Positions 9,749-31,281 of a DNA stretch of 64,000 nt are shown here, one piece after another. Source of the stretch: Spirochaetota bacterium. Lineage in GTDB: Bacteria; Spirochaetota; Brevinematia; DTOW01. The position numbers were made by a program, and so were the translations under genes. Each line of letters begins with the position of its first letter. The stretch's first letter is position 1. Location of the stretch: contig JANXAC010000002.1 of the NCBI GenBank assembly GCA_025061835.1, forward strand, positions 37,185 to 101,184, in the 5' to 3' direction. A model generated the notes under the pieces. The model saw only the letters and a list, made by a program, of their open reading frames with translations. It was not told the origin of the DNA and searched no databases.

Positions 9749-11140
9749 ATGATAGAAGTTTCCGTCAGTTGGCTTGCTAAAGTTTCACGAGGTAGGCTTG
9801 CATACTCTAAAGGACCTAAACTCATAAGCGGTATATCTACTGACTCAAGAAATATAAAAGAAGGTGAATGTTTTGTAGCACTGAGAGGTAAAAATTTTGA
9901 CGGTCATAACTTCGTCAAAGAGTGTCTATCAAAAAAAGTAACAACTTTTGTTGTTGAAGACGCTTTTTTCAATTCCAATACTAATCTTTTTGAAAGTGCT
10001 AATGCCATTGTAGTCAAGGATACTTACAGAGCATTGATGGATATAGGTAGTGCCTACAGAAACGATTTTGTGCCTGATAAGAAGATCATAGCGATAACTG
10101 GTAGTTCCGGTAAAACTACTACTAAATACATTATAGCACAGTTGCTTTCATACAAGTATAAGGTAGAATTCTCACCTAAAAGCTATAACAACAATGTAGG
10201 TGTTCCATTGTCTATTCTAAAGATAAACGAAGATACAGACATAGGTGTCTTGGAAGTCGGAATGAACAGAAAGGGTGAGATAAGGAAACTTTCAAAAATT
10301 ATTATGCCTGATGTTGGCATCATAACCAATATAGGATACGCCCACATAGAATTTTTAAAAACTGTCAGAAATATAGCACTAGCAAAGTCGGAACTATTTG
10401 AAGGCATACGACAAGGAGGAGTTGTATTTCTCAATAAAAATTCAAGATATTTGGATGTTCTTGAAGTAAACGCAAAAAGATTCCAACTTGATATTCACTA
10501 CTTTGATGTTAAAGAAGCTAGAGTAATACAGAATAGAGGAATAGATGGAGTTGTGTTTGAATACGATGATGTTGAGTTTGATACATCGGTTCCTGGAACC
10601 CATAATATTGAAAATTTGGTTTGCGCCTTTGAGATAGCAAAGTTTTTCGGAATTAAAATATCTGACCTAGTGTCAATAGTCAAAAATCTATCCCTGCCAG
10701 AGATGAGGAATAATGTTATAAGAGGATGGTTTACAGTGATAGATGACTCATATAACGCAAATCCTGACTCTATGATGATGGCTCTTGACCTTTTGGATAG
10801 TGCTAAATCTAAAGGTAAGAAGATAGCAGTTCTTGGAGATATGCTTGAGTTAGGGGAACATTCTCAAAAACTACATCTACAGGTAGCTGACCACATACTT
10901 AATAAGAATATTGACTACATTCTGTGTTATGGCGAGAATTTCTCTCTAGTCCATGATTATCTTATTGAAAAGGGGATGGATAAAAATAATGTTATATCCA
11001 CCTCAAGCATAAACGAAATAGCGGATATACTAGGTTACCTCGTCAAAGAGGGGGATATAGTGCTTGTCAAAGGTTCAAGAGGGATGAGATTGAATGAGAT
11101 CGCTTCGTTCCTAGAAAATAAGATGAAGGAGAATGTATGA
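9749..11140 (+). CDS. murF: UDP-N-acetylmuramoyl-tripeptide--D-alanyl-D-alanine ligase
   Basis: Mur ligase P-loop ITGSSGKTTTK; DDSYNANPDSM motif; N-terminal STDSR...DGH region typical of MurF; 463 aa. Confidence 0.9.
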   Translation: MIEVSVSWLAKVSRGRLAYSKGPKLISGISTDSRNIKEGECFVALRGKNFDGHNFVKECLSKKVTTFVVEDAFFNSNTNLFESANAIVVKDTYRALMDIGSAYRNDFVPDKKIIAITGSSGKTTTKYIIAQLLSYKYKVEFSPKSYNNNVGVPLSILKINEDTDIGVLEVGMNRKGEIRKLSKIIMPDVGIITNIGYAHIEFLKTVRNIALAKSELFEGIRQGGVVFLNKNSRYLDVLEVNAKRFQLDIHYFDVKEARVIQNRGIDGVVFEYDDVEFDTSVPGTHNIENLVCAFEIAKFFGIKISDLVSIVKNLSLPEMRNNVIRGWFTVIDDSYNANPDSMMMALDLLDSAKSKGKKIAVLGDMLELGEHSQKLHLQVADHILNKNIDYILCYGENFSLVHDYLIEKGMDKNNVISTSSINEIADILGYLVKEGDIVLVKGSRGMRLNEIASFLENKMKENV

Positions 11141-12462
11141 TTTTTGCAAAATTCTTCCTATCAGTTCTATCAATAATAGTATCTATCTTCTCTTACTTGT
11201 ATATACTCAAAATCTTAATTACCTTTAAGTTTCCCTTAATGGTTAATGTTATTCTCATCAGCGGTGCTATACTCCTACTTGCTTTGTTCGGTATTGTCAG
11301 TCTTTACATAAGAAGAATAAGAAAATATGATGTTTCAAGATTGGATGTTAATGATGTTCAGAGCATTTCAAGGTTTTTGTCATTCGTCCCTATTTTTTTC
11401 GCGGCACTCTCTGTGTTGATCGTAGTATCAATATCTGCTTATGAGTATCGGACAACAAGAAATATTACAAACTTTTTTAATGTTATTGTATTTTCGCTAC
11501 CTATAGCATTTATATCATACTATCTAGTCAAGATTTCCTTACTTGAGGTAAGACTCAGTGGTTTCTTTTCATTCAGTCGGCGTAATTCTGTAAGCATTCT
11601 ACTGTCTTTCTTGATTGTGATGTTGTTCAATGTACTTGTAGGATTAGGCTTTGTGCTTATTTCCGTATTATACATAAAGAAGTCACTGATGGTTGTCATC
11701 TATGTAGTGGTTTTTTCATTTATCACTTCCCTAATACTTTTCGTTTGGAATCTAGCTTTGAAGTTGAGGTATGTCATTAAGATCCTAAAAGTTCCAGAAA
11801 TGTTTGAGAGTTATGTTCCTGTTCTCTCTAACGATGAGATAGGTTTAATTTCGGTTTATCTTGATGGTATTTTATCCGAATGTAGGCAATCATACAATTT
11901 CCCTAGAATATATCTAGGAGACAAGAAAGTTGATATTGAGTTAGGTAAGCACTTCTGTGGCTGTGTTTGGCTAAAACTCTTTGATGTTCCTTCTCTGTTT
12001 TCAGAGTTCTCTGAAAAAGTTATGGATGATATACAGATAACCTTCGCTAGGATTGAGTCTAAGGTTATTGAAAGTAAAGGGTATGTTGCTAGATTTGATG
12101 GGACTGAGATGTATATAGTCTGGGGGCTAGATGGAACCGACTGGGGTGATAACCTTAAACAGTTTGTCAATTTTCTATACTCTGCTTATAAACAGAATGT
12201 TTTTGACAATATAAGTGTCCTAAAAGTTGGTATTGCTAGTGGGAGAGTATTTGTAGGTAGAACCGAAAGTATATACGGCAATCTGCCATACATTTTCGGA
12301 GAGGGTATAATTGAAAGTTATATCGTCGGCAAGTATGTTAAAGGTGATGGATTTTTTGCATCAGGGGAAATCAAAGATCTCTTCGGAAATTACACTTACA
12401 TAGATAAAGTCAGGGTAAAAGAACTGAACAAAATAGTAGAAATATACAGACTATTCATTTAA
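11137..12462 (+). CDS. membrane-anchored protein with C-terminal class III nucleotidyl cyclase-like domain (tentative)
   Basis: About 7 N-terminal hydrophobic segments; C-terminal LKLFDV ... ARFDGTEMYIVWG ... LKVGIASGRVFVGRTESIYGNLPYIFGEGIIESYIVG resembles the metal-binding Asp strands and the RIGIHTG...GD.VN.A.R segment of adenylate/guanylate cyclase catalytic domains. ATGA overlap with murF stop. Confidence 0.45.
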   Translation: MIFAKFFLSVLSIIVSIFSYLYILKILITFKFPLMVNVILISGAILLLALFGIVSLYIRRIRKYDVSRLDVNDVQSISRFLSFVPIFFAALSVLIVVSISAYEYRTTRNITNFFNVIVFSLPIAFISYYLVKISLLEVRLSGFFSFSRRNSVSILLSFLIVMLFNVLVGLGFVLISVLYIKKSLMVVIYVVVFSFITSLILFVWNLALKLRYVIKILKVPEMFESYVPVLSNDEIGLISVYLDGILSECRQSYNFPRIYLGDKKVDIELGKHFCGCVWLKLFDVPSLFSEFSEKVMDDIQITFARIESKVIESKGYVARFDGTEMYIVWGLDGTDWGDNLKQFVNFLYSAYKQNVFDNISVLKVGIASGRVFVGRTESIYGNLPYIFGEGIIESYIVGKYVKGDGFFASGEIKDLFGNYTYIDKVRVKELNKIVEIYRLFI

Positions 12463-15363: not shown

Positions 15364-16173
15364 ATGTCAAGTAGTAAGAAATCTAAATATCCTCCTCAGA
15401 AGGACAAAGTAACAACCAAACCAAAGTCTAGATCAAAAAGTAAAAGGAAGAGAGACTTATCAAAAATACTCATACTAATCTTATCCCTAGTAGCCATCGG
15501 AGGTGTTGTATATGTAGTTTATGATATTATCCAAAACAACCGAACACTAGTATCTGAACAGAATTATATAACTCAAGTTTGGACTAACAACCCAACCTTG
15601 AACGCAATGGTTAGTAATACAAATTATGTAAAGACCAATTCAAAGTCTTTAGAAATGAGTAATGTTGTTGAAAAAACTCAAGAGAGTTTTGAAAAGAAGA
15701 AGATTACAAACTCAGTCTCAATAAAGAAGGATAGTGTCAATGAAGAAGATAGTAAGGTAGATGTTAAGAGAGTAAAGATTTACTACTACAGAGTTTCTGG
15801 AGATAATCTTGTCTTTTCATCAAGGCAGGTTGATTTGAATGGAGATAGTTTGTATGAAGTTTTCAAAACTCTAAAACAGATCAAGAATTCCGATAATGAA
15901 GTATCCTTCGTCAACAAGAGAGTGAGAATTATTGATTATAGAGTTGTAGATGATACTCTAATTATAAACTTATCAAGAGAGATTGAGATAAATGAATACG
16001 GAAGTATAGGTGTTTTGTATTCCATCTACCAGATAGCATATTCTCTTGGTAGTATTACAAGATCCAAAAATGTTCTTGTGCTTATAGAAGGAACTAAACC
16101 TAACTATATAGAAGGAGAAGGAATAGTTTTTCAAAATCCTATAGATATAACTAGACTTCCTGCTATCAACTAG
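15364..16173 (+). CDS. hypothetical membrane-anchored protein with basic N-terminus
   Basis: Lys/Ser-rich N-terminus followed by one hydrophobic segment (ILILILSLVAIGGVVYVVY) and a ~200-aa extracytoplasmic domain; no motif named. Confidence 0.5.
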   Translation: MSSSKKSKYPPQKDKVTTKPKSRSKSKRKRDLSKILILILSLVAIGGVVYVVYDIIQNNRTLVSEQNYITQVWTNNPTLNAMVSNTNYVKTNSKSLEMSNVVEKTQESFEKKKITNSVSIKKDSVNEEDSKVDVKRVKIYYYRVSGDNLVFSSRQVDLNGDSLYEVFKTLKQIKNSDNEVSFVNKRVRIIDYRVVDDTLIINLSREIEINEYGSIGVLYSIYQIAYSLGSITRSKNVLVLIEGTKPNYIEGEGIVFQNPIDITRLPAIN

Positions 16174-16220: not shown

Positions 16221-17228
16221 ATGGAAGACATCTTATCTCCAAGAAGGGCAGTTGGTGAGGATACCTACGAAGAGGGAATAAGACCTAGATACCTTGATGA
16301 ATTTATAGGGCAGGAGAGTATAAAAAACAATCTCAAGGTGTTTATAGATTCTTCTATCAAGAGAAACGATATTCTTGACCATGTGTTAATTTCAGGACCT
16401 CCAGGTCTTGGTAAAACTACTCTCGCTAAAATAATCGCAAACGAACTTAGGACAAATTTCGTATACACTGTCTCTAACTCTTTCCAGAAGGTTGGTGATG
16501 TTGTTGCAATACTGACAAACCTTCAGAGAGGTGATGTTCTATTTATTGACGAGATACATAGACTTAAGCCTTCTTATGAAGAAGTTTTATACTCTGCTAT
16601 GGAAGATTACTCAGTTTCAGTAATGATAGGTGAAGGACCTGGTGCAAAGAGTATTAAGATTAACATTCCAAAATTTACACTGATTGGTGCTACTACGAGA
16701 ACTGGACTTCTTACATCTCCTTTAATATCAAGATTTGGAATACTTCTAAAGGTTGATTTCTACTCGGACGAAGATATGGGGGAAATATGCGAAAGGACCT
16801 GTAGGATACTTGGTCTTGATATATCAAATGAAGCTATAAAAGAAATAGCAAAACGCTCAAGAGGAACACCAAGAGTGCTAAACAGGATATTAAGAAGAAT
16901 AAGAGATTTTGCAGTAGTTGAGGGAGTAAGTAGGATTGAATTAGGCAAGGTTAGAGAATACCTTTTGAAACTCGGGATTGATGAGGAAGGATTAGACGAA
17001 GTAGATAGGAAGATACTTTCAGTGATTGTTGAGAAATATCAGGGAGGTCCTGTTGGACTTAAGACACTTTCCGCAAGCATAGGAGAAGAAGAAGACACGA
17101 TTGAAGATGTTTTTGAACCTTTTCTCATACTAAAAGGATTTATAAAGAGAACCCCTAAAGGTAGAGTTGCGACTGAGTTAGCATACCAGCATCTTGGCAT
17201 ACCAAAGAATAGCAATTCACTTTTCTAA
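16221..17228 (+). CDS. ruvB: Holliday junction branch-migration ATPase RuvB
   Basis: PRYLDEFIGQE start region; Walker A GPPGLGKTTLA; Walker B VLFIDEIHRL; RuvB-type C-terminal winged helix; 335 aa. Confidence 0.92.
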   Translation: MEDILSPRRAVGEDTYEEGIRPRYLDEFIGQESIKNNLKVFIDSSIKRNDILDHVLISGPPGLGKTTLAKIIANELRTNFVYTVSNSFQKVGDVVAILTNLQRGDVLFIDEIHRLKPSYEEVLYSAMEDYSVSVMIGEGPGAKSIKINIPKFTLIGATTRTGLLTSPLISRFGILLKVDFYSDEDMGEICERTCRILGLDISNEAIKEIAKRSRGTPRVLNRILRRIRDFAVVEGVSRIELGKVREYLLKLGIDEEGLDEVDRKILSVIVEKYQGGPVGLKTLSASIGEEEDTIEDVFEPFLILKGFIKRTPKGRVATELAYQHLGIPKNSNSLF

Positions 17229-17242
17229 ACTCTAGTAGAAGT

Positions 17243-17551
17243 ATGGTAGAAGTAAAGGTAGCGTATGATAAAGGCAGGGTAAGAATAGAGATGAATGGGC
17301 ACAGTGGATACGGCAAGAAAGGTGAGGATATAGTATGTGCAGGAATATCTGGAGTATTACAATTTGTAATAATACATTTCTTCAACAACCTGCGAAGAGA
17401 TGGTAATTTTAAACTATCAAATGGTGTTGGTTTTGTTGAGGTTATGTTGAAGGAAGAAGATAGAGATCTAATATCTTCATTCATTGAGTATCTAAAACTA
17501 GTTGAAAAGAGTTATCCAAACTCGTTGAGAATAGATGTTGTTAATAAGTAG
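17243..17551 (+). CDS. prp: ribosomal-processing cysteine protease Prp (DUF464 family)
   Basis: GHSGYGKKGEDIVCAGISGVLQ matches the Prp His/Cys catalytic region; about 100 aa. Confidence 0.72.
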   Translation: MVEVKVAYDKGRVRIEMNGHSGYGKKGEDIVCAGISGVLQFVIIHFFNNLRRDGNFKLSNGVGFVEVMLKEEDRDLISSFIEYLKLVEKSYPNSLRIDVVNK

Positions 17552-18551
17552 TATTCAAATTCTTAACTATCCTGTGCCTTATTATGTTTATCTCTCCAGA
17601 TACACTTCTCAAGAATTTCTCAAGCATTTCTATCACTGGCAAGTTCTGCGGAAACCTTGGACTATCAGAAAACACAGATGTCATGTTTAGTAAGTATCTC
17701 GTAATAAAGTTAAACCTACTAATAACCTCCTTATCGTCTGTAGAACTACTTAACATATCCAATCTTGAGAAGTTAAAAGTTCCAGTTTTACCTAGAAGAG
17801 TTTTTCTATTGTATCCATAATTGATGTAACAACTGTAGAGATTATTATTTTTATATATCTTTGAAGTTTCTGATTTTCTGATGATTATATCATCATTCAG
17901 TAAGAAAGTTGGTATATCAAATGTTTTTACATGCCCAAATACACTTGGGCTATCAACATTGAGTCCTTGAAGATTTCCATCTTTTACAAAGATTGTCTGG
18001 TTGTCAGAGTATTCATCTATCTTTTTAGTTATAAATTCTATTTCAATGTTCTGTAATAAAATCTCAAGAACATACTTGTCCCACAACTCGCTTACCTTGC
18101 TTATCTCAGGCTCAATCGGGTATATCGTGTATTTAATACTTTTCTCTATTTCTATGACACTTCCATTTACAATTCTGTCATTAAGGACACTTCTAGGTGC
18201 GATGAGGTATCTCAATACTTCATACTCAACTGATTTGGATAATTCAACTGGTTTGTTACTCTCCACCTTAATTAAGCCTGGAACTATCGTAATAAACCCG
18301 ACTACCGATGGCCTAAACATCAATACAAAGTCCAGTCTGACAACACTGTCAAAGAATATTATGGTTTTAGGTTTAAAACTTTGGTCTTTCTTATCAATAC
18401 TTCCTATTTCAACGAATTCGTTGTTGTTATAACCTGATACACCTTGTGTTGGGAAGTCTTGAATATTATCACTCCCCGTGATACCTATATAATCCTCTTT
18501 GAATATATCTCTTATTGAATTTATATTAAAACTCATACTATTCCTCAACAA
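17541..18551 (-). CDS. hypothetical protein (336 aa)
   Basis: ORF track; overlaps the upstream 602-aa gene by 14 bp (same strand), implying co-translation; no recognisable motif. Confidence 0.5.
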   Translation of the reverse strand: MLRNSMSFNINSIRDIFKEDYIGITGSDNIQDFPTQGVSGYNNNEFVEIGSIDKKDQSFKPKTIIFFDSVVRLDFVLMFRPSVVGFITIVPGLIKVESNKPVELSKSVEYEVLRYLIAPRSVLNDRIVNGSVIEIEKSIKYTIYPIEPEISKVSELWDKYVLEILLQNIEIEFITKKIDEYSDNQTIFVKDGNLQGLNVDSPSVFGHVKTFDIPTFLLNDDIIIRKSETSKIYKNNNLYSCYINYGYNRKTLLGKTGTFNFSRLDMLSSSTDDKEVISRFNFITRYLLNMTSVFSDSPRFPQNLPVIEMLEKFLRSVSGEINIIRHRIVKNLNTTY

Positions 18552-20346
18552 ATATGGTTATAAGAGAAGAGAATGCGTTAAGTTTTTCAACCGCTCTTTC
18601 AACACCTTCTACAAATTCTTTGTTATTTTGTCCTCCTATCCTGTGTATGTTAATGACAGTTTTAGGGAATGGTGAATATATATCATCAGAAATGAACTTG
18701 AGTATTTTATACATTCCTTTGAAGATATCTTTAAAAGCACTAAGGAATTCAAAGCATACACCATTTATTATCATTATCTTTCTCTCTATAACTTTTTTGT
18801 TTGATTCGTTAGCTAGGAGTGATGGGGAGGATATGAACTTAGATAACAGTATATGATACTCTCCACCTTGCTCAACTGCCTTAACAAAATCTTCCATTTT
18901 AGCCCTAACAGGCTCCACTTTTGAGTATAATTCAGAGAACGTTTTTTGAAGTTGTTTATCCGAGAACGAACCAGCAACTATCAAATTATTCACCTTATCT
19001 TTTATATCAGGCTCCCAAATAGTTTTGATGAAAATGACCGATATTCCGAGAAGTTTAGTGTATAGAAATGGTGGGAGACCATACTTTGAGAAAAGGCTAC
19101 TAACATTTGTTGAGTATATACCGTATTCTTGTATTTCAATAGGCTTGCCAAAAATGACAGTCATATATTTATCTATAAGTCTGTTATTCTTCTCATCCAT
19201 CTTTGATATTATTAGTCTTTTGTATTTTTCATTTATTACTTTTGAGAATTCTTTGAATAATGAATAGTTAGTCTTGATTACAAATGGTTTGTGATTTGGG
19301 TCCTTTGAGATGTAGGCAACCAGGTCAGCTATATTAATTTTGCTGATATTATCATTCAAGGTCTGGAAGAAGTTAGGAGATAATTTATTTTTGATTTCTG
19401 ACGCTTTCTGATTATCTCCCGAGAAGTTGTTTATGTAGTCTAACATTATATTGATATACTGAGTCGTGTACACATCATCCACAACCAACGATAATAAGAT
19501 ACTCTCAAGATCCTTAATGTGATTTACAAGTCCTTGAGGAGAGATAGACTTAAAACTGACTTTACCTCTTTTGAGTTCTGAAAACTGTGTAAACCTCCTT
19601 ACAATTGTTTCAAAATCAAAGTATGCAAACTCCCTAAGTTTAATTATGTTATTGAAAATACCATCTGCACGCTTTACCAGATCTTCTGGTATAGAAGATA
19701 GTATAGCACTTATTTCATCTTCAATTGCTCTAATGGCACTTTTCATACTTTTTGCTTTATCAACAATATTACTAACAAAACTTGTGGTTAGTTCTTTATA
19801 TCTCTCAACAACATTAGGAAGGTCTGTAATACTTTCAAAAAGATATTCACAGGATGACTTTTGAACACCTATGCCTTTCCAGAAATTCTCATTCTCCAGA
19901 AATATGTCAAAAATGGATCGTAAGGTCTTTGCATACTCATATAGTGATAGTATGATTCTACCAAACTCTCCGGATAATCCACCTTTCGATGGATCTATCA
20001 TACACGGCTTACTTCGCCTCAGCTTCTGCTCTATTTTCTTTAGTGCCTTGCTCTTCTTGTAATCACTGGATGGCATGATATTAAAGACAGAAAGTAGAAA
20101 CATTAATATTCTGTCCCACAGTGAAAGTTCTACATCTATAACCTCTTCCCTCCTTATTGGTAGCTCAACGAGTTCTAACTCTCCTTGAGCGGACATTTCG
20201 GATACTTTTGTAGAAGTGTATTTTTTCAGTTTTTCAGCCAGTTTTTTTCTTTCCACTTCATCAGTCTTCAACGCTTCTGCATCAAATTTTCTGTCAAAGA
20301 CACCTAGTTTTTTAGCTCTATCAACCGTTTCCTTATCGTAAGGCAT
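18538..20346 (-). CDS. hypothetical protein (602 aa)
   Basis: ORF track; 24 bp downstream of the gamma-CA-like gene on the same strand; charged N-terminus, no nucleotide-binding or catalytic motif recognised. Confidence 0.55.
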   Translation of the reverse strand: MPYDKETVDRAKKLGVFDRKFDAEALKTDEVERKKLAEKLKKYTSTKVSEMSAQGELELVELPIRREEVIDVELSLWDRILMFLLSVFNIMPSSDYKKSKALKKIEQKLRRSKPCMIDPSKGGLSGEFGRIILSLYEYAKTLRSIFDIFLENENFWKGIGVQKSSCEYLFESITDLPNVVERYKELTTSFVSNIVDKAKSMKSAIRAIEDEISAILSSIPEDLVKRADGIFNNIIKLREFAYFDFETIVRRFTQFSELKRGKVSFKSISPQGLVNHIKDLESILLSLVVDDVYTTQYINIMLDYINNFSGDNQKASEIKNKLSPNFFQTLNDNISKINIADLVAYISKDPNHKPFVIKTNYSLFKEFSKVINEKYKRLIISKMDEKNNRLIDKYMTVIFGKPIEIQEYGIYSTNVSSLFSKYGLPPFLYTKLLGISVIFIKTIWEPDIKDKVNNLIVAGSFSDKQLQKTFSELYSKVEPVRAKMEDFVKAVEQGGEYHILLSKFISSPSLLANESNKKVIERKIMIINGVCFEFLSAFKDIFKGMYKILKFISDDIYSPFPKTVINIHRIGGQNNKEFVEGVERAVEKLNAFSSLITIFVEE

Positions 20347-20369
20347 AAAACCTCCACTTCATTTCAAAC

Positions 20370-20876
20370 TTAGGTTTTCATCAATCTAGCTAGTTCAACA
20401 TACTCCATAGCATTTGTCTTTATCTTCTCTATTTCTTCTTGAGAGAGTTCTCTGACGACCTTAGCAGGTGAGCCCAGAACCAAAACACCATCAGGTATCT
20501 CTGTTCTAGGAGTAATTAATGTCCCTGCACCTATTATTACATTTCTACCAACCTTCACATTATCCAACAGTATTGATCCCATACCAACTATAACATAATC
20601 TGATATAGTAGCACCATGAACTATCGCATTGTGACCTACAGTAACATAGTCACCTATTATGGTTGGAATACTATGGTTAACATGTATTACAGCATTATCT
20701 TGAATATTAGAACATCTACCTACCTTAACAAAACAAACATCACCCCTTACTACTGCTCCAAACCATACACTACTATCTTGACCTATCTCAACATTGCCTA
20801 TCACCCTAGCATTATCAGATATATACACGCTACTATGTATTTTCGGAAAATACTGACCAAAATTATAAACCTTCAC
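20370..20876 (-). CDS. gamma-class carbonic anhydrase family / hexapeptide-repeat protein
   Basis: Left-handed beta-helix hexapeptide repeats with His ligands (VIHVNHSIPTIIGDYVTVGHNAIVHGATI); 168 aa. Confidence 0.78.
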   Translation of the reverse strand: MKVYNFGQYFPKIHSSVYISDNARVIGNVEIGQDSSVWFGAVVRGDVCFVKVGRCSNIQDNAVIHVNHSIPTIIGDYVTVGHNAIVHGATISDYVIVGMGSILLDNVKVGRNVIIGAGTLITPRTEIPDGVLVLGSPAKVVRELSQEEIEKIKTNAMEYVELARLMKT

Positions 20877-21118: not shown

Positions 21119-22309
21119 ATGGCTGAAGGTAAGTTCGAGAGAAAGAAGCCCCACATCAATGTAGGGACTATAGGTCACGTTGACCACGGTAAAACAACTT
21201 TGACTTCTGCTATTACTAAAGTTCTATCAAAAAAGGGCTACGCTAAAGAAAAGAATTATGAAGATATTGACAATGCTCCTGAAGAAAAAGCTAGAGGTAT
21301 AACTATTCAGATTCAGCACATAGAATACGAAAGTGATACAAGACACTACGCACACATAGACTGTCCAGGACACGCAGACTATGTTAAGAATATGGTTACG
21401 GGTGCAGCACAGATGGATGGAGCAATACTTGTTGTCGCTGCTAATGATGGTGTTATGCCTCAAACAAGAGAACATGTCTTGCTCGCCAGACAGGTAGGTG
21501 TTCCTTACATTGTAGTATTCCTAAACAAGATTGATATGGTCGATGACCCTGAAATCATTGATATAGTTGAAGAAGATGTAAGAGATCTCCTGAAGAAGTA
21601 CGGCTACCCTGGTGACAAAGTTCCTATCATAAGAGGTTCTGCTTACAAAGCCATGACAAACCCTGACCCAAACACAGACGGTAAGAGTATATTAGAGCTC
21701 CTTGATGCTCTTGACAAGTTTATCCCCGAACCCGTTAGAGAGATTGATAAACCATTCCTTATGCCTGTTGAAGATGTATTCTCCATCTCAGGTAGAGGAA
21801 CTGTAGTTACCGGTAGAGTTGAGAGAGGTAAGATCACTCCAGGTGAAGAAGTTGAGATAGTAGGACTTTCTTATGAGGTCAAGAAAACTGTCGTTACATC
21901 AATAGAGATGTTTAGAAAGGAACTTGACTCCGCTATAGCCGGAGACAACGCTGGATTGCTTCTAAGAGGTATTGGAAAGGATGAAGTTTGGAGAGGACAG
22001 GTTATCTGTAAGCCTGGGTCAGTTACACCTCATAAGAAATTCAAGGCAGAGATATATGTTCTGAAGAAAGAAGAAGGTGGAAGACATACTCCATTCTTTG
22101 CTGGTTATAGACCTCAGTTCTTCTTTAGAACCGCAGATGTCACTGGAACTGTTACGAAGATACCAGGAGAAATGGTAATGCCAGGAGATAATGTGAATGT
22201 TGAGGTTGAATTAATATACCCTGTTGCTATGGAAAAGGGACTTAGATTTGCTATAAGAGAAGGTGGTAAAACAGTCGGTGCAGGTGTTGTAACAGACATT
22301 ATTGAGTAG
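21119..22309 (+). CDS. tuf: translation elongation factor Tu
   Basis: [11 protein letters not shown]-loop, DCPGH, NKIDMV and [13 protein letters not shown] motifs; 396 aa; AGGAGG RBS. Confidence 0.97.
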
Positions 22310-22322
22310 TTTCGGTGGTTCT

Positions 22323-22631
22323 ATGGTTTCAAAAATAAGAGTAAAACTAAAGTCATACGACGCTGAAGTAATTGACAAAACTGCCAAAGACATATGTAAT
22401 GTAGTCAAGAATGTAGGGGCTAAAACTGTAGGCCCCATACCATTACCAACAAAAATAAGGAGATACACTGTCTTAAGATCTCCTCACATAGATAAAGACT
22501 CAAGAGAGCATTTTGAATATAGACTTCACAGAAGGCTAATAGACATACTTGAGCCATCTCAAGAAGTTATAGATGCTCTCTTAAGATTGGAAATACTACC
22601 TTCAGTTGATGTGGAGATAAAACAAGATTAG
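22323..22631 (+). CDS. rpsJ: 30S ribosomal protein S10
   Basis: [20 protein letters not shown]...[15 protein letters not shown] matches S10. ORF track start 22302 is a TTG inside the tuf 3' end; the first ATG is at 22323. Confidence 0.93.
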
Positions 22632-22671
22632 TTATAGATCAAGAATACCTAGATTTTATTTGGAGGAAGTT

Positions 22672-23325
22672 ATGGGAAAGTCTTTTACCGGAAAGGGGCT
22701 TATAGGCAAGAAGATAGGAATGACGCAAATATTCGTTGGTGAAAACGTTGTTCCAACTACAGTTATAGAAGTAGGTCCTTGCACCATATTACAAGTCAAG
22801 ACACCTGAAAAAGACGGATACAGTGCAATCAAACTCGGTTTTGGAGCTGTCAAGTCTAGGGTAAAAGATAAGAGTGATAAGACAAAGTATAAGATAATAC
22901 ATAAACCTGCTATAATAAAAGAGTTTAGAGTTGATGACCCTACAAAGTTTAAGGCTGGAGATACTCTAGATGTTTCTTATCTTGAAGGCATCAAGTATGT
23001 TGATGTAAGTGGATACTCAAAAGGTAGAGGCTTTCAAGGTGTTATGAAGAGATGGGGCTTTTCCGGAGCTCCTGACTCACACGGACAATCGGTGTTCCAC
23101 AGAAGACCTGGTTCAATAGGACAGCATACATTCCCCGCTAAAGTATGGAAAGGTAAGAAAATGCCCGGTAGGATGGGTGGTGAAAAGGTAACAGTCCAAA
23201 ATCTGGAAGTTATTCATATTGATAAAGAGAAAAACCTTATCCTCGTTAAAGGAGCAGTACCTGGCTACAACGGCAGTTATGTTTTTGTGAGAGAGGCTAT
23301 CAAGAAATCAAATCTGGTTGGTTAG
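22672..23325 (+). CDS. rplC: 50S ribosomal protein L3
   Basis: GLIGKKIGMTQIF N-terminus and L3 body. Track start 22660 is TTG overlapping GGAGG (22662-22666); ATG 22672 lies 5 nt downstream of that RBS. Confidence 0.93.
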   Translation: MGKSFTGKGLIGKKIGMTQIFVGENVVPTTVIEVGPCTILQVKTPEKDGYSAIKLGFGAVKSRVKDKSDKTKYKIIHKPAIIKEFRVDDPTKFKAGDTLDVSYLEGIKYVDVSGYSKGRGFQGVMKRWGFSGAPDSHGQSVFHRRPGSIGQHTFPAKVWKGKKMPGRMGGEKVTVQNLEVIHIDKEKNLILVKGAVPGYNGSYVFVREAIKKSNLVG

Positions 23326-23332
23326 TTTATTG

Positions 23333-23421
23333 GGAGGGGTGGCCGAGCGGACGAAGGCGACAGTCTTGAAAACTGTAGTACCCTCTATAGGGTACCGGGG
23401 GTTCGAATCCCTCCCCCTCCG
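23333..23421 (+). tRNA. tRNA-Ser (anticodon UGA), class II with long variable arm
   Basis: Hand-folded cloverleaf: acceptor GGAGGGG/CCCCTCC, D-stem GCC/GGC, anticodon stem ACAGT/ACTGT with loop CTTGAAA (anticodon TGA at 23367-23369), 7-bp variable-arm stem GTACCCT/AGGGTAC, T-stem GGGGG/CCCTC with TTCGAAT loop, discriminator G; CCA not encoded. Confidence 0.85.
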
Positions 23422-23426
23422 ATCCA

Positions 23427-24308
23427 TCAAACATACTCTATTACTACACCTATCCTCTGCTTCCTCTTACAATCCTTGAAAAAGTATACTATTGATGTTT
23501 CAGTGAAAGGAAACTGTTGTTTATACTTACCGATACTTTCAGGCTTCATCACTCTGGTTATAACCATATCAGAAGTCTGCATCATTAGAGTATAGCCTCT
23601 ACCTCTTACAGGAATACTCTGAATGAAATCATTCCTAGCCAAAAATCCAATAATGTTATTCCTTCCCTCACTCTCAATGGACTTTGATATCTCATATATA
23701 TCTGACATACCAAGATAATCATTTATTCTTATAATAAGCATCTCAGAATTTACCATTAGGTCAACTCTAACTTTAGCACTAGACCTATTAAGACTTATGT
23801 TTGCCTCAACTATATTATCTATGATCTCTGAAGATGATATAATAATATGTGCCCTGTCAACTTTATCACCAACTTCAAAGTAATCTAGAAATGATACTAT
23901 GATGTCCATTAGTTCCTCAGGAATAAGTTTTATGTTACCTTCTAGTATAACTGAGTCTCTTTGAGTATTATTCATTATCTCAACAGGAATAAACGAATTC
24001 ACATCACTACCATGGTGTATCAAAGTGTCAATAATGCCTAATAAAAATTCTTCTTTATATGAAAGTGAAATGTTCCCTTTGTAGAACCTGTTGTAAGTTC
24101 CTGATATGAAAACTAGTATGTTTCTATTACCTTCTTTTAATAGATTGTTCCTTACAAAATTTATATATGCTGATGTATCAGTTATTACTATTTCGTTGTT
24201 AGGTATAAGGTAATATGGAGAACCTTTACCGTTCAATACTATAACATCAGAGTATATTCTTGAAAGTAGACTAACTATGCTATGATTACTACTTGCAATG
24301 ACAAACAT
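23427..24308 (-). CDS. hypothetical protein (293 aa)
   Basis: ORF track; last gene of the eno-rpmI-386aa-293aa same-strand series; no recognisable motif. Confidence 0.5.
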   Translation of the reverse strand: MFVIASSNHSIVSLLSRIYSDVIVLNGKGSPYYLIPNNEIVITDTSAYINFVRNNLLKEGNRNILVFISGTYNRFYKGNISLSYKEEFLLGIIDTLIHHGSDVNSFIPVEIMNNTQRDSVILEGNIKLIPEELMDIIVSFLDYFEVGDKVDRAHIIISSSEIIDNIVEANISLNRSSAKVRVDLMVNSEMLIIRINDYLGMSDIYEISKSIESEGRNNIIGFLARNDFIQSIPVRGRGYTLMMQTSDMVITRVMKPESIGKYKQQFPFTETSIVYFFKDCKRKQRIGVVIEYV

Positions 24309-24377
24309 ACATCAGATAATAGAAAAATATAAGAATTTTTAAGATTATTTCAAAAATTCTCTAGGAATGAAAACCTT

Positions 24378-25538
24378 TTAGTAAATTTTCTTGACAACTT
24401 TACCATTATAGAAGTACCTGAAACCTAGTAATCCTCTATTAACGAGCTCATTAACACTAGAAACTACCTTATCTTTCTCAAGACCTCTTAAACTACCAAA
24501 GTGCTCCCAAAGAAATCTATCATTCACACCCATAAGAGACTTTACTCCCTCTTCAAATTCTACATATTTACCTTGAAACGAACTACAGATTATTCTTTCG
24601 TTTCTATCTAGCACTTCTGTGTTGTTTTTGTTGTGTTTTAAATACTTTAGTCTTTTAGACATGAGATAGCAAGACAGATACTCTCTTTTATCTCCCTTAA
24701 ATCCAAGAAAGTTTAACCATTCAAGATACTCTTCTCTTAATCTAGGATACTTATCTAACCTTCTCGCCAATATTCCTTCATCCTTATGTGATACTATTAT
24801 CGTATAATTATCAGAAGGGATGTTTAGTGTATCGTGTATGAATTCTGAAAGTATTTTAGGTATCCTTATATAAACTACATTGTTAAAATTCACATTCCTG
24901 ACTAGGAAGCGAAATTTATATGGAACAACTAGAAAACCTCCTTCAACCTTGAACTTGCTCAAGACTACTCTTCTAGTATAAAAATCAATATCCTTAAGCA
25001 CTAAACAACTAATATCCTTTAGAGAGTTCTTGATCAAAAGAGATTGAGTAATATCTTTTGATATGATTAAAGTCCTTCTCGTTTGTAGATTACCTAAATC
25101 TCTAGTAATGAATTCCAATTTTTTGCTAGTAAAAAACACAGATATCTTGTATTCGTAATTTTCTCTTACTTCAACCTTTAAACTAGAATAGGACTTTAGA
25201 CTCTTAAGAAATTTCCTCAAGTTTTTTCTGTTCATGCAGCCTGAAACGACAGAAACCTTCTTGAATTCTGATCCTCTAACAAATTCGTAGAGTTCTCTAT
25301 ACTTTTCTCTATACAGGGGTGATAGAGGATATATAAATTCAGGGTCTATGATGAACACCTCATGATCTCTAGTATCACCCTTGAAGAATTTGAATGATTT
25401 GTACCCGATAATTTTTAAAGGTGATAAATTTATAAACTCTTGGTTCAAGCGAGGATTTACAATAAGAGTTGGGGAGTCTAGCTTCACCACCTCCCCTAAC
25501 ATTATCTTCCTCTTTTCAGAAGGGAAGATTAAGTTCAT
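24378..25538 (-). CDS. hypothetical protein (386 aa)
   Basis: ORF track; start ATG abuts the rpmI stop (TAGATG). An alternative ATG 12 codons in (about 25502) has a better RBS (AAGAGGAAG). No recognisable motif. Confidence 0.5.
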   Translation of the reverse strand: MNLIFPSEKRKIMLGEVVKLDSPTLIVNPRLNQEFINLSPLKIIGYKSFKFFKGDTRDHEVFIIDPEFIYPLSPLYREKYRELYEFVRGSEFKKVSVVSGCMNRKNLRKFLKSLKSYSSLKVEVRENYEYKISVFFTSKKLEFITRDLGNLQTRRTLIISKDITQSLLIKNSLKDISCLVLKDIDFYTRRVVLSKFKVEGGFLVVPYKFRFLVRNVNFNNVVYIRIPKILSEFIHDTLNIPSDNYTIIVSHKDEGILARRLDKYPRLREEYLEWLNFLGFKGDKREYLSCYLMSKRLKYLKHNKNNTEVLDRNERIICSSFQGKYVEFEEGVKSLMGVNDRFLWEHFGSLRGLEKDKVVSSVNELVNRGLLGFRYFYNGKVVKKIY

Positions 25539-29229: not shown

Positions 29230-29991
29230 ATGGAAAACTTGATAGGTATAGGGTATCTTAAATTCTTCAGTGAAGGAGATAATACTATGTATGATAAAGT
29301 TGACATAAATATCAAGAACGATAATGACTTTGTTGAATTAATTAACAAGTTCATAAAAGAAGGTAAATATTTCTACTTAAAGTTCTACGGTATATCACCA
29401 GAAATTGAAAGAAGGGTAAATCTAGCTATCACTAAGATTTTTGAGAATTACGAAAGGGGAGACTTATCTGACATTGTATATACTTGTGTTAAAGAACTAA
29501 TCCTCAACGCTAGCAAAGCTAACATAAAGAGAATAGTGTTTGAAGAACATAATGTTGATGTAAATGATGAAAAGAGCTTCTTGGTAGGTATGATGAAGTT
29601 CAAAGAAGAACTTTCCGAGATAAACCTACCTAAATATATTCCAAAACTAGCAAACAAGGATCTATACATAAGTGTAGCATTTTACCATTCCAAAGATGGT
29701 GTTAGGATTGAAGTTGTGAATAATGTAAGCATGAGTGAATTCGAAAACAAAAGGATAAGAGAGAAACTTAAGAAAGCGATGGGTTACGAAGATATATCAC
29801 AGTTTTACTTAGAACAAGGTGATGAACTTGAGGGAGCAGGATTAGGAATTGCCCTTATTGTAATGCTCCTTAAGGGAGTCGGTATTGACCCTTCACTTTT
29901 CAGAATATCCGGACCTAACAATAACTATGTCCTAGCCAGAATAGAAGTTCCTCTAACCGAAAATTATGTTAGTGTAAGAAAAAGAAATTAG
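29230..29991 (+). CDS. GHKL/HATPase_c-like protein (anti-sigma-factor-type kinase or histidine-kinase-like; tentative)
   Basis: N-box-like ELILNASKA, G1-like DGVRIEVVNN, G2-like EGAGLGIAL in the canonical order; GGAGG RBS 5 nt upstream of ATG. Confidence 0.42.
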   Translation: MENLIGIGYLKFFSEGDNTMYDKVDINIKNDNDFVELINKFIKEGKYFYLKFYGISPEIERRVNLAITKIFENYERGDLSDIVYTCVKELILNASKANIKRIVFEEHNVDVNDEKSFLVGMMKFKEELSEINLPKYIPKLANKDLYISVAFYHSKDGVRIEVVNNVSMSEFENKRIREKLKKAMGYEDISQFYLEQGDELEGAGLGIALIVMLLKGVGIDPSLFRISGPNNNYVLARIEVPLTENYVSVRKRN

Positions 29992-30066: not shown

Positions 30067-31281
30067 TTACTTATTCACAAGAAATCTACTCAACCAAAAA
30101 TCCGCTTCCTCTGGAATTAACCTTCTGGCTTTGAACAGTAGGTCTATTGCTTCCTTCTTCCTGCCAAGCGCATACTCGCTCCTTGCCAGATAAACCATAA
30201 CAAGTCCTTTAAGATAAGAATCCTCATCAAAATTCTCAAGCAACCCTCTCAATCTCAAACTACTTTCACTATAGTTTCTGACATTAAAGTAGTTCTTAAC
30301 TATATACTTTAGATTTCCTTCAAAATCACTATCACTGCTATACCCCAAAGTAGATTTGACACTAGACGAATCAAACTTTCCTGAAACAGGTATTCGGCCA
30401 CTTCCGTTAGTTATAAGAACGAGATTAGTTGTAAATGTCTTTACTTCATTGGTAAAAAAATTAGTTACATAATTAGTTATGAATACAGTATTTGTGGTAA
30501 CGTTCATGTTAGCATCAACTGACAAGGCTTTATCCATTGATGATCTTTGAACAATTAGATTGGTAGAAATTTTTGGAGAGGACATATCATCATACCTAGA
30601 TCTACTTACAACAACACTGTTATACTTCCTTGAAAAGTAGTAATTCGTAACACTCTTAAAAAATGGTATAACTATGTAAGAAAAATTAGTATCAGACGGA
30701 AGAATGTCAAACAATATCGTCTCATCAGGAGATAAAACTGATATTGGTTTCAAATTTTCTAGATTACCCTGAAAATTCTCATCAACTTTATACACGAAAT
30801 AACCATCACAACCATTAATCCTGCTCCATTTTATAACCACATTCCTAGAATCGTTTATGTAATCCAATTCAACTTTAGGTAATGGTGTATAAATAACAAA
30901 ACTGATAGAAACATTCTGCTCGGAAACAAACTCTAAAATATCCTTACCACCCTTATTCACAAAAACAATATAATAATTAGCTCCTATGTTAGGAGTTGGA
31001 TCTTTAACATATAGAAACTCCCCTCTTCTATCAAGTTCATCATACCTGTATGTTCCAACTTTAGTAATTAGGGAAATATTATTAGAAAACATAACAGAGT
31101 TTGATATGTAAATAGGGCTTCTATAGATGGAAAACGACACATTAGTATTCAAGGACTTCCAATAAACAAAAACATCTCCATCCTCCATACCATATGTTAT
31201 AAGCGAAACAACCTGTGCTATACAGATATTACCTAAAAAGAGAAATACAATAATTACCAAAAACCAAACAATCAACCTCAT
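30067..31281 (-). CDS. secreted/membrane-anchored hypothetical protein with C-terminal TPR-like helices
   Basis: N-terminal hydrophobic signal/anchor; beta-rich middle; C-terminal helical repeat region; 404 aa. Confidence 0.5.
   Translation of the reverse strand: MRLIVWFLVIIVFLFLGNICIAQVVSLITYGMEDGDVFVYWKSLNTNVSFSIYRSPIYISNSVMFSNNISLITKVGTYRYDELDRRGEFLYVKDPTPNIGANYYIVFVNKGGKDILEFVSEQNVSISFVIYTPLPKVELDYINDSRNVVIKWSRINGCDGYFVYKVDENFQGNLENLKPISVLSPDETILFDILPSDTNFSYIVIPFFKSVTNYYFSRKYNSVVVSRSRYDDMSSPKISTNLIVQRSSMDKALSVDANMNVTTNTVFITNYVTNFFTNEVKTFTTNLVLITNGSGRIPVSGKFDSSSVKSTLGYSSDSDFEGNLKYIVKNYFNVRNYSESSLRLRGLLENFDEDSYLKGLVMVYLARSEYALGRKKEAIDLLFKARRLIPEEADFWLSRFLVNK

Follow-up and report, generated by a model that had tools for sequence, protein, structure and literature searches.

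What does a NurA nuclease do at a locus that offers it no HerA translocase? The question is raised by a transcription unit on the minus strand of a 64,000-nucleotide stretch of contig JANXAC010000002.1 from a Spirochaetota bacterium, a stretch that we refer to as the window. NurA nucleases are known almost wholly from the HerA-NurA resection machine, in which they supply the nuclease activity. The window unit contains a gamma-carbonic-anhydrase-like (gamma-CA-like) gene, a gene of the DUF5312 family and a NurA-like gene, and its unusual element is a NurA gene without an adjacent HerA gene that is coupled instead to DUF5312; we regard it as a variant rather than as a system of a new kind. A rare clade that has kept all of its catalytic residues, has no HerA nearby and is coupled to DUF5312 constitutes a natural test of HerA-independent NurA. 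The open reading frame (ORF) list contains the three minus-strand ORFs where the initial annotation had placed them. That annotation treated the second and third genes as unknowns, which was wrong for the third, assigned here by profile to the NurA nucleases, and partly right for the second, whose spirochaete family has been named but not characterised.

The third gene (17541-18536, minus strand, ATG start) encodes a protein of 331 aa and 38 kDa that, judged from its sequence, is a very divergent NurA-family nuclease of the type represented by Deinococcus radiodurans NurA (DrNurA) and Thermotoga maritima TM1739. Direct sequence searches of the PDB with the DUF5312 and NurA-like proteins returned no match; a profile of 22 NurA-like sequences matched TM1739 with E=4.6e-28 and DrNurA with E=4e-27. 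The protein has the two-domain RNase-H-like fold of NurA. Its predicted catalytic and phosphate-binding residues are D63 (in the motif FFDS), E165, D186-G187 (KDG), K204 (FGHVK), R294-P296-Q297-N298 (RFPQNL) and E306, and D63, E165, D186, K204, R294 and E306 are invariant in the 22 sequences. In the profile alignment D63, K204 and R294 correspond to D53, K201 and R309 of DrNurA, all three of which are needed for cleavage according to mutant data (PMC9960219). The enzyme is apparently catalytically intact. The initial annotation had recognised no P-loop, catalytic or transmembrane signature in either large protein; this holds for the P-loop and transmembrane signatures in both, but the third gene does carry the NurA catalytic residues. 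The clade is rare: when 1.84 billion representative proteins were searched with a profile, only 19 matched at E<=0.001. Treponema pallidum TP0747 (344 aa, encoded beside cfpA) was considered as a hidden NurA and rejected: inspection by eye found none of the NurA motifs, and Phyre returned no NurA template.

The closest characterised relative is DrNurA (DR_0836; PDB 7F6D), part of a bacterial NurA-HerA end-resection complex, to which the window protein is about 15% identical. Motif I reads VVDG in DrNurA and FFDS in the putative nuclease of the window. TM1739 (PDB 1ZUP), about 16% identical, is a structural-genomics "putative nuclease with RNase H-like fold" and is itself functionally uncharacterised. 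Expected of the NurA nuclease family are Mn2+-dependent 5'-3' exo/endonuclease activity, a toroidal homodimer and an operonic or physical partnership with a HerA-type hexameric ATPase. It is this partnership that is missing at the window locus, where the gene coupled upstream encodes the all-alpha DUF5312 protein and no HerA ATPase is adjacent. The archaeal NurA-HerA system (Sulfolobus solfataricus NurA, PDB 2YGK) and the TdpAB defence complex (TdpB, PDB 8WET) are much more distant; both act on a hexameric HerA-type ATPase, and none is present at the window locus or at the related loci examined.

Profiles of both proteins were run with hmmsearch over related contigs, which are labelled here L001, L002, L013 and so on. 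No HerA/DUF87 gene was found within 8 kb on either side of the locus in L001, L002 or L013/L014. Within the 64-kb window no HerA-like P-loop ORF was found, the four ORFs with a Walker A motif being a P-type ATPase, PriA, RuvB and EF-Tu. Because no HerA translocase is adjacent, it is probable that the NurA-like nuclease works without one. A section heading in the DrNurA paper refers to HerA-independent nicking of single-stranded DNA loops.

The NurA-like gene lies directly behind the DUF5312 gene (18538-20346, minus strand, ATG start, 602 aa). Across the junction (18537-18551) a GAGGA motif at 18546-18542 is followed by the DUF5312 stop codon TAG at 18540-18538, a 1-nt spacer at 18537 and the NurA ATG at 18536-18534. 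The same 1-nt spacer is present in L001 and L013, and L002 has a 1-nt overlap. By this arrangement, the two genes are tightly translationally coupled. The initial annotation was correct about close coupling, but the 14-bp overlap that it described is an artefact because it took the longest ORF, which begins at an unsupported TTG at 18551 (17541-18551, 336 aa). That start is contradicted by the homologues, since Met1, which matches the ATG at 18536, is invariant in an alignment of eight of them, and by the NCBI annotation of a protein 100% identical to the product, the 331-aa "hypothetical protein RMJ37_01565 [Spirochaetia bacterium]". Promoter and terminator scans performed at background level and were used only to ask about internal terminators; no terminator-like site was found inside the unit on the minus strand of 17541-20876. 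The window is low in GC (0.31-0.39). Homologues with 30-92% identity occur on many independent contigs, and the genes of the unit are therefore real and, by the same comparison, under purifying selection rather than chance ORFs.

The initial annotation had proposed that co-occurrence of the pair be checked in other genomes, and the pair was indeed found on L001, L002, L005, L006, L013/L014 and L017, whose neighbourhoods were compared. In clade A (66-92% DUF5312 identity) the order gamma-CA, DUF5312, NurA is found in the window, L001, L002, L005, L006 and L017, with the convergent prp gene downstream in the window, L002 and L006, the loci where this was checkable. In clade C (L013/L014; 52% DUF5312 identity), where NurA is about 30-34% identical to that of clade A, the pair stands between an unrelated 303-aa ORF and AhpC, so that both flanks differ from clade A, and it has retained the 1-nt junction. 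The adjacency of DUF5312 and NurA, present in these two deep clades, is old, has outlasted turnover of the flanking genes and is losable. Two loci with an isolated NurA-like gene have neighbours of their own: in L015 (3707-6577, assembly GCA_964475465.1) it is divergent from two flaA (flagellar sheath) genes, and in L011/L012 (585-3791) the neighbour of the stand-alone NurA relative P0045 is a gyrB gene that contains an intein (Pfam Intein_splicing, from precomputed domains).

The DUF5312 protein is a soluble, all-alpha protein of 69.4 kDa with a net charge of +9. It matches Pfam DUF5312 (PF17239) with 76.6 bits against a cutoff of 25 bits, residues 31-594 aligning with positions 14-551 of the 553-position profile. 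All 23 homologues of the protein carry a precomputed PF17239 assignment, and a profile search returned the same 23 proteins. The N-terminal region of about 70 residues is conserved and modelled with low confidence. An internal duplication was rejected, as the N-terminal and C-terminal halves of the protein gave no significant alignment with hhalign. DUF5312 has no known fold relatives, and among the matches obtained it appears specific to spirochaetes: these come from Brevinematia, Brevinematales or "Spirochaetes" metagenome-assembled genomes, together with T. pallidum TP0110 and one fragment binned elsewhere. The fragment, a C-terminal piece with 72% identity on a 2,965-bp contig (L009, 5-457), was binned as "Candidatus Omnitrophota", which probably reflects a contig placed in the wrong bin rather than an occurrence outside the spirochaetes. 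Genome and metagenome scans for DUF5312 reached only Brevinematia-like loci because the back-translated motifs used are clade-specific.

TP0110 (TPANIC_0110; WP_010881559, 577 aa) is a core member of DUF5312, scoring 512 bits. Like the window protein it is spirochaetal, uncharacterised and about 65-70 kDa in size. It differs in being located between rlmB and rpoN with no NurA next to it, and it is very remote in sequence: when the Brevinematia profile was compared by hhalign with residues 1-399 of TP0110, the only alignment was a 14-residue patch, which is probably due to chance because it is non-colinear. T. pallidum expresses TP0110 at an intermediate level. The size, helicity and conservation of DUF5312 had suggested that it might be CfpA (TP0748). 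This identity was rejected, as RefSeq gives the name CfpA to TP0748 and the name DUF5312 to another T. pallidum protein, TP0110, and nine CfpA tryptic peptides gave no significant or colinear match to the profile (p=0.10-0.43). A literature search over about 8 million papers found no mention of "DUF5312" or "PF17239"; of ten papers that contain the string "TP0110", nine deal with organisms other than treponemes (mostly Theileria and Toxoplasma locus tags), and one Treponema paper (PMC8789261) mentions it once. Coupling to NurA is so far the only contextual clue to the role of DUF5312 and TP0110.

The explanation that we favour, and to which we give an even chance as a whole, is that the locus is a housekeeping transcription unit that Brevinematia spirochaetes have inherited vertically, in the order gamma-CA-like, DUF5312, NurA-like. 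Its last gene encodes a very divergent NurA-type nuclease with the RNase H fold and intact catalytic residues, and, by analogy with DrNurA, it is highly likely that this is a 5'-3' exo/endonuclease or nicking enzyme dependent on divalent metal, which would process DNA ends or single-stranded loops in recombinational repair. The nuclease would act without the HerA translocase, and its translation is coupled to that of DUF5312, a soluble, basic, all-alpha protein conserved across spirochaetes, which in these lineages would serve the nuclease as a partner, scaffold or regulator that is not an ATPase. The probability that the two proteins are linked physically or functionally we place slightly short of even, and the stronger proposal, that DUF5312 is an unrecognised ATPase-free partner that has replaced HerA for the divergent NurA, is unlikely.

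The main alternative, which we place somewhat below even, accepts the same family assignments but regards the adjacency as nothing more than an inherited operon. DUF5312 would then have a spirochaete-wide function unrelated to DNA-end processing, and NurA would act by itself or together with products of other loci, among them perhaps a distant HerA. Several observations weigh against the favoured explanation, most of them by agreeing with this alternative. A HerA gene may lie elsewhere in the genome, outside the visible 64 kb. One Brevinematia clade has uncoupled the two genes and yet keeps both: in clade B (L007, L008, L018, L019 and L022; 58-60% identity) no NurA-like or gamma-CA gene adjoins DUF5312, which in L007 (3489-6488) and L008 (5201-8249) stands instead between an upstream gene for a 183-aa double zinc-ribbon protein and a downstream archease gene (Pfam Archease, 115 bits), and the genome that holds L008 (GCA_964475465.1) has its NurA-like gene alone on another contig, beside flaA genes. 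T. pallidum keeps DUF5312 and has nothing annotated as NurA or HerA, so that the DUF5312 family reaches well beyond the NurA clade. Neither DUF5312 nor HerA is encoded next to P0039 or P0045, two stand-alone relatives of NurA, and the DUF5312 and NurA-like proteins have diverged at very different rates, with identities of 72, 67 and 53% for DUF5312 against 43, 44 and 34% for the NurA-like protein. The family assignment itself is indirect, in that neither the window protein nor 12 close relatives matched Pfam NurA (PF09376) at E<=0.01; because the window protein lacks this direct match, its membership is supported through intermediates, 3 of the 22 extended-family members matching Pfam NurA above the 21-bit cutoff. 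Against an operon by inheritance alone, the pair and its 1-nt junction have persisted at 52% identity for DUF5312 and about 30-34% for NurA while both flanking genes were replaced. Adjacency that outlasts flank turnover usually points to a functional link.

Two other readings concern the nuclease itself and the purpose of the pair. The NurA-like protein might be a catalytically dead relic, or an RNA-directed enzyme similar to PIWI or EndoV rather than a DNA nuclease. The matches to NurA are twice as strong as those to PIWI and EndoV and cover both domains, and every acidic or basic residue that DrNurA requires is invariant across the 22 relatives; with every catalytic residue invariant, a dead enzyme is unlikely, and this reading taken together is very improbable. 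The least probable is that the pair forms an anti-phage or anti-plasmid defence module, in which a NurA-like effector would be joined to a sensor or scaffold in a manner comparable with the HerA/NurA-like TdpAB complex. PADLOC gave no match for the NurA-like and gamma-CA-like proteins, and for DUF5312 only a 13-bit LeoBC match at noise level. A defence or phage origin was rejected, as nothing credible was found in PADLOC or PHROGs and BFVD gave no structural match. The lack of PADLOC matches, the unremarkable GC content, inheritance by vertical descent and the surroundings of housekeeping genes together make a defence role unlikely. If the favoured explanation holds in its strong form, with DUF5312 replacing HerA, the locus would represent a new spirochaete-specific module of DNA-end processing or nucleoid maintenance, and would provide the first functional assignment for a protein of the syphilis agent that is conserved and so far annotated as hypothetical. 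Should the link prove no more than operonic, the outcome is a useful re-annotation, in which a "hypothetical protein" is renamed as a nuclease of the NurA family and given a corrected start codon.

The first gene of the unit (20370-20876, minus strand, GTG start) encodes a 168-aa left-handed beta-helix (hexapeptide) protein with a Pfam Hexapep score of 68.1 bits. Its best NCBIfam match is gamma-CA (NF050158, 182.3 bits), followed by PaaY and CaiE, which makes the gamma-CA-like label of the initial annotation a fair one. In its hexapeptide fold, its length and its three spaced histidines it resembles the YrdA/PaaY/CaiE group; it differs in falling under the equivalog cutoff of 250 bits, and a carbonic anhydrase role is putative. 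The spacing of His65, His82 and His87 in the translation is that of gamma-CA metal ligands, a role that we presume for them. The spacer to DUF5312 (20347-20369), with the Shine-Dalgarno sequence GGAGG at 20355-20351, 4 nt before the ATG at 20346, is 23 nt long and not 24 bp as initially given. Orthologues with 63-72% identity are found upstream of DUF5312 in L001, L002, L005, L006 and L017, and in two of the three clades other genes take this position. Most likely, the gamma-CA-like gene is only a co-transcribed neighbour.

Downstream and outside the unit, the convergent prp gene for the ribosomal-processing cysteine protease (17243-17551, plus strand; Pfam Peptidase_Prp, 50.7 bits) overlaps the 3' end of the NurA-like gene by 11 bp (17541-17551), as originally noted, and the same convergent overlap occurs in L002 and L006. 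It directly follows ruvB (16221-17228); in T. pallidum prp is located between rplU and rpmA (TP0743-TP0745). A six-frame search of the 64-kb window with a regular expression did not find the conserved N-terminal L27 motif. Between priA and ruvB, a plus-strand gene (15364-16173) encodes a 269-aa protein with an N-terminal basic and transmembrane region and a GerM-like "Germane" domain (33 bits). Three further ORFs, at 11137-12462 (plus strand, 441 aa), 29230-29991 (plus strand, 253 aa) and 30067-31281 (minus strand, 404 aa), gave no Pfam match at E<=1e-5 and no NCBIfam match at E<=1e-10. In the region 21119-25538 the gene downstream of tuf, rpsJ and rplC is not rplD; two minus-strand ORFs in convergent orientation come next (23427-24308, 293 aa; 24378-25538, 386 aa), neither with a credible match in Pfam, NCBIfam, PADLOC or PHROG, and the S10 operon seems to be interrupted after L3.
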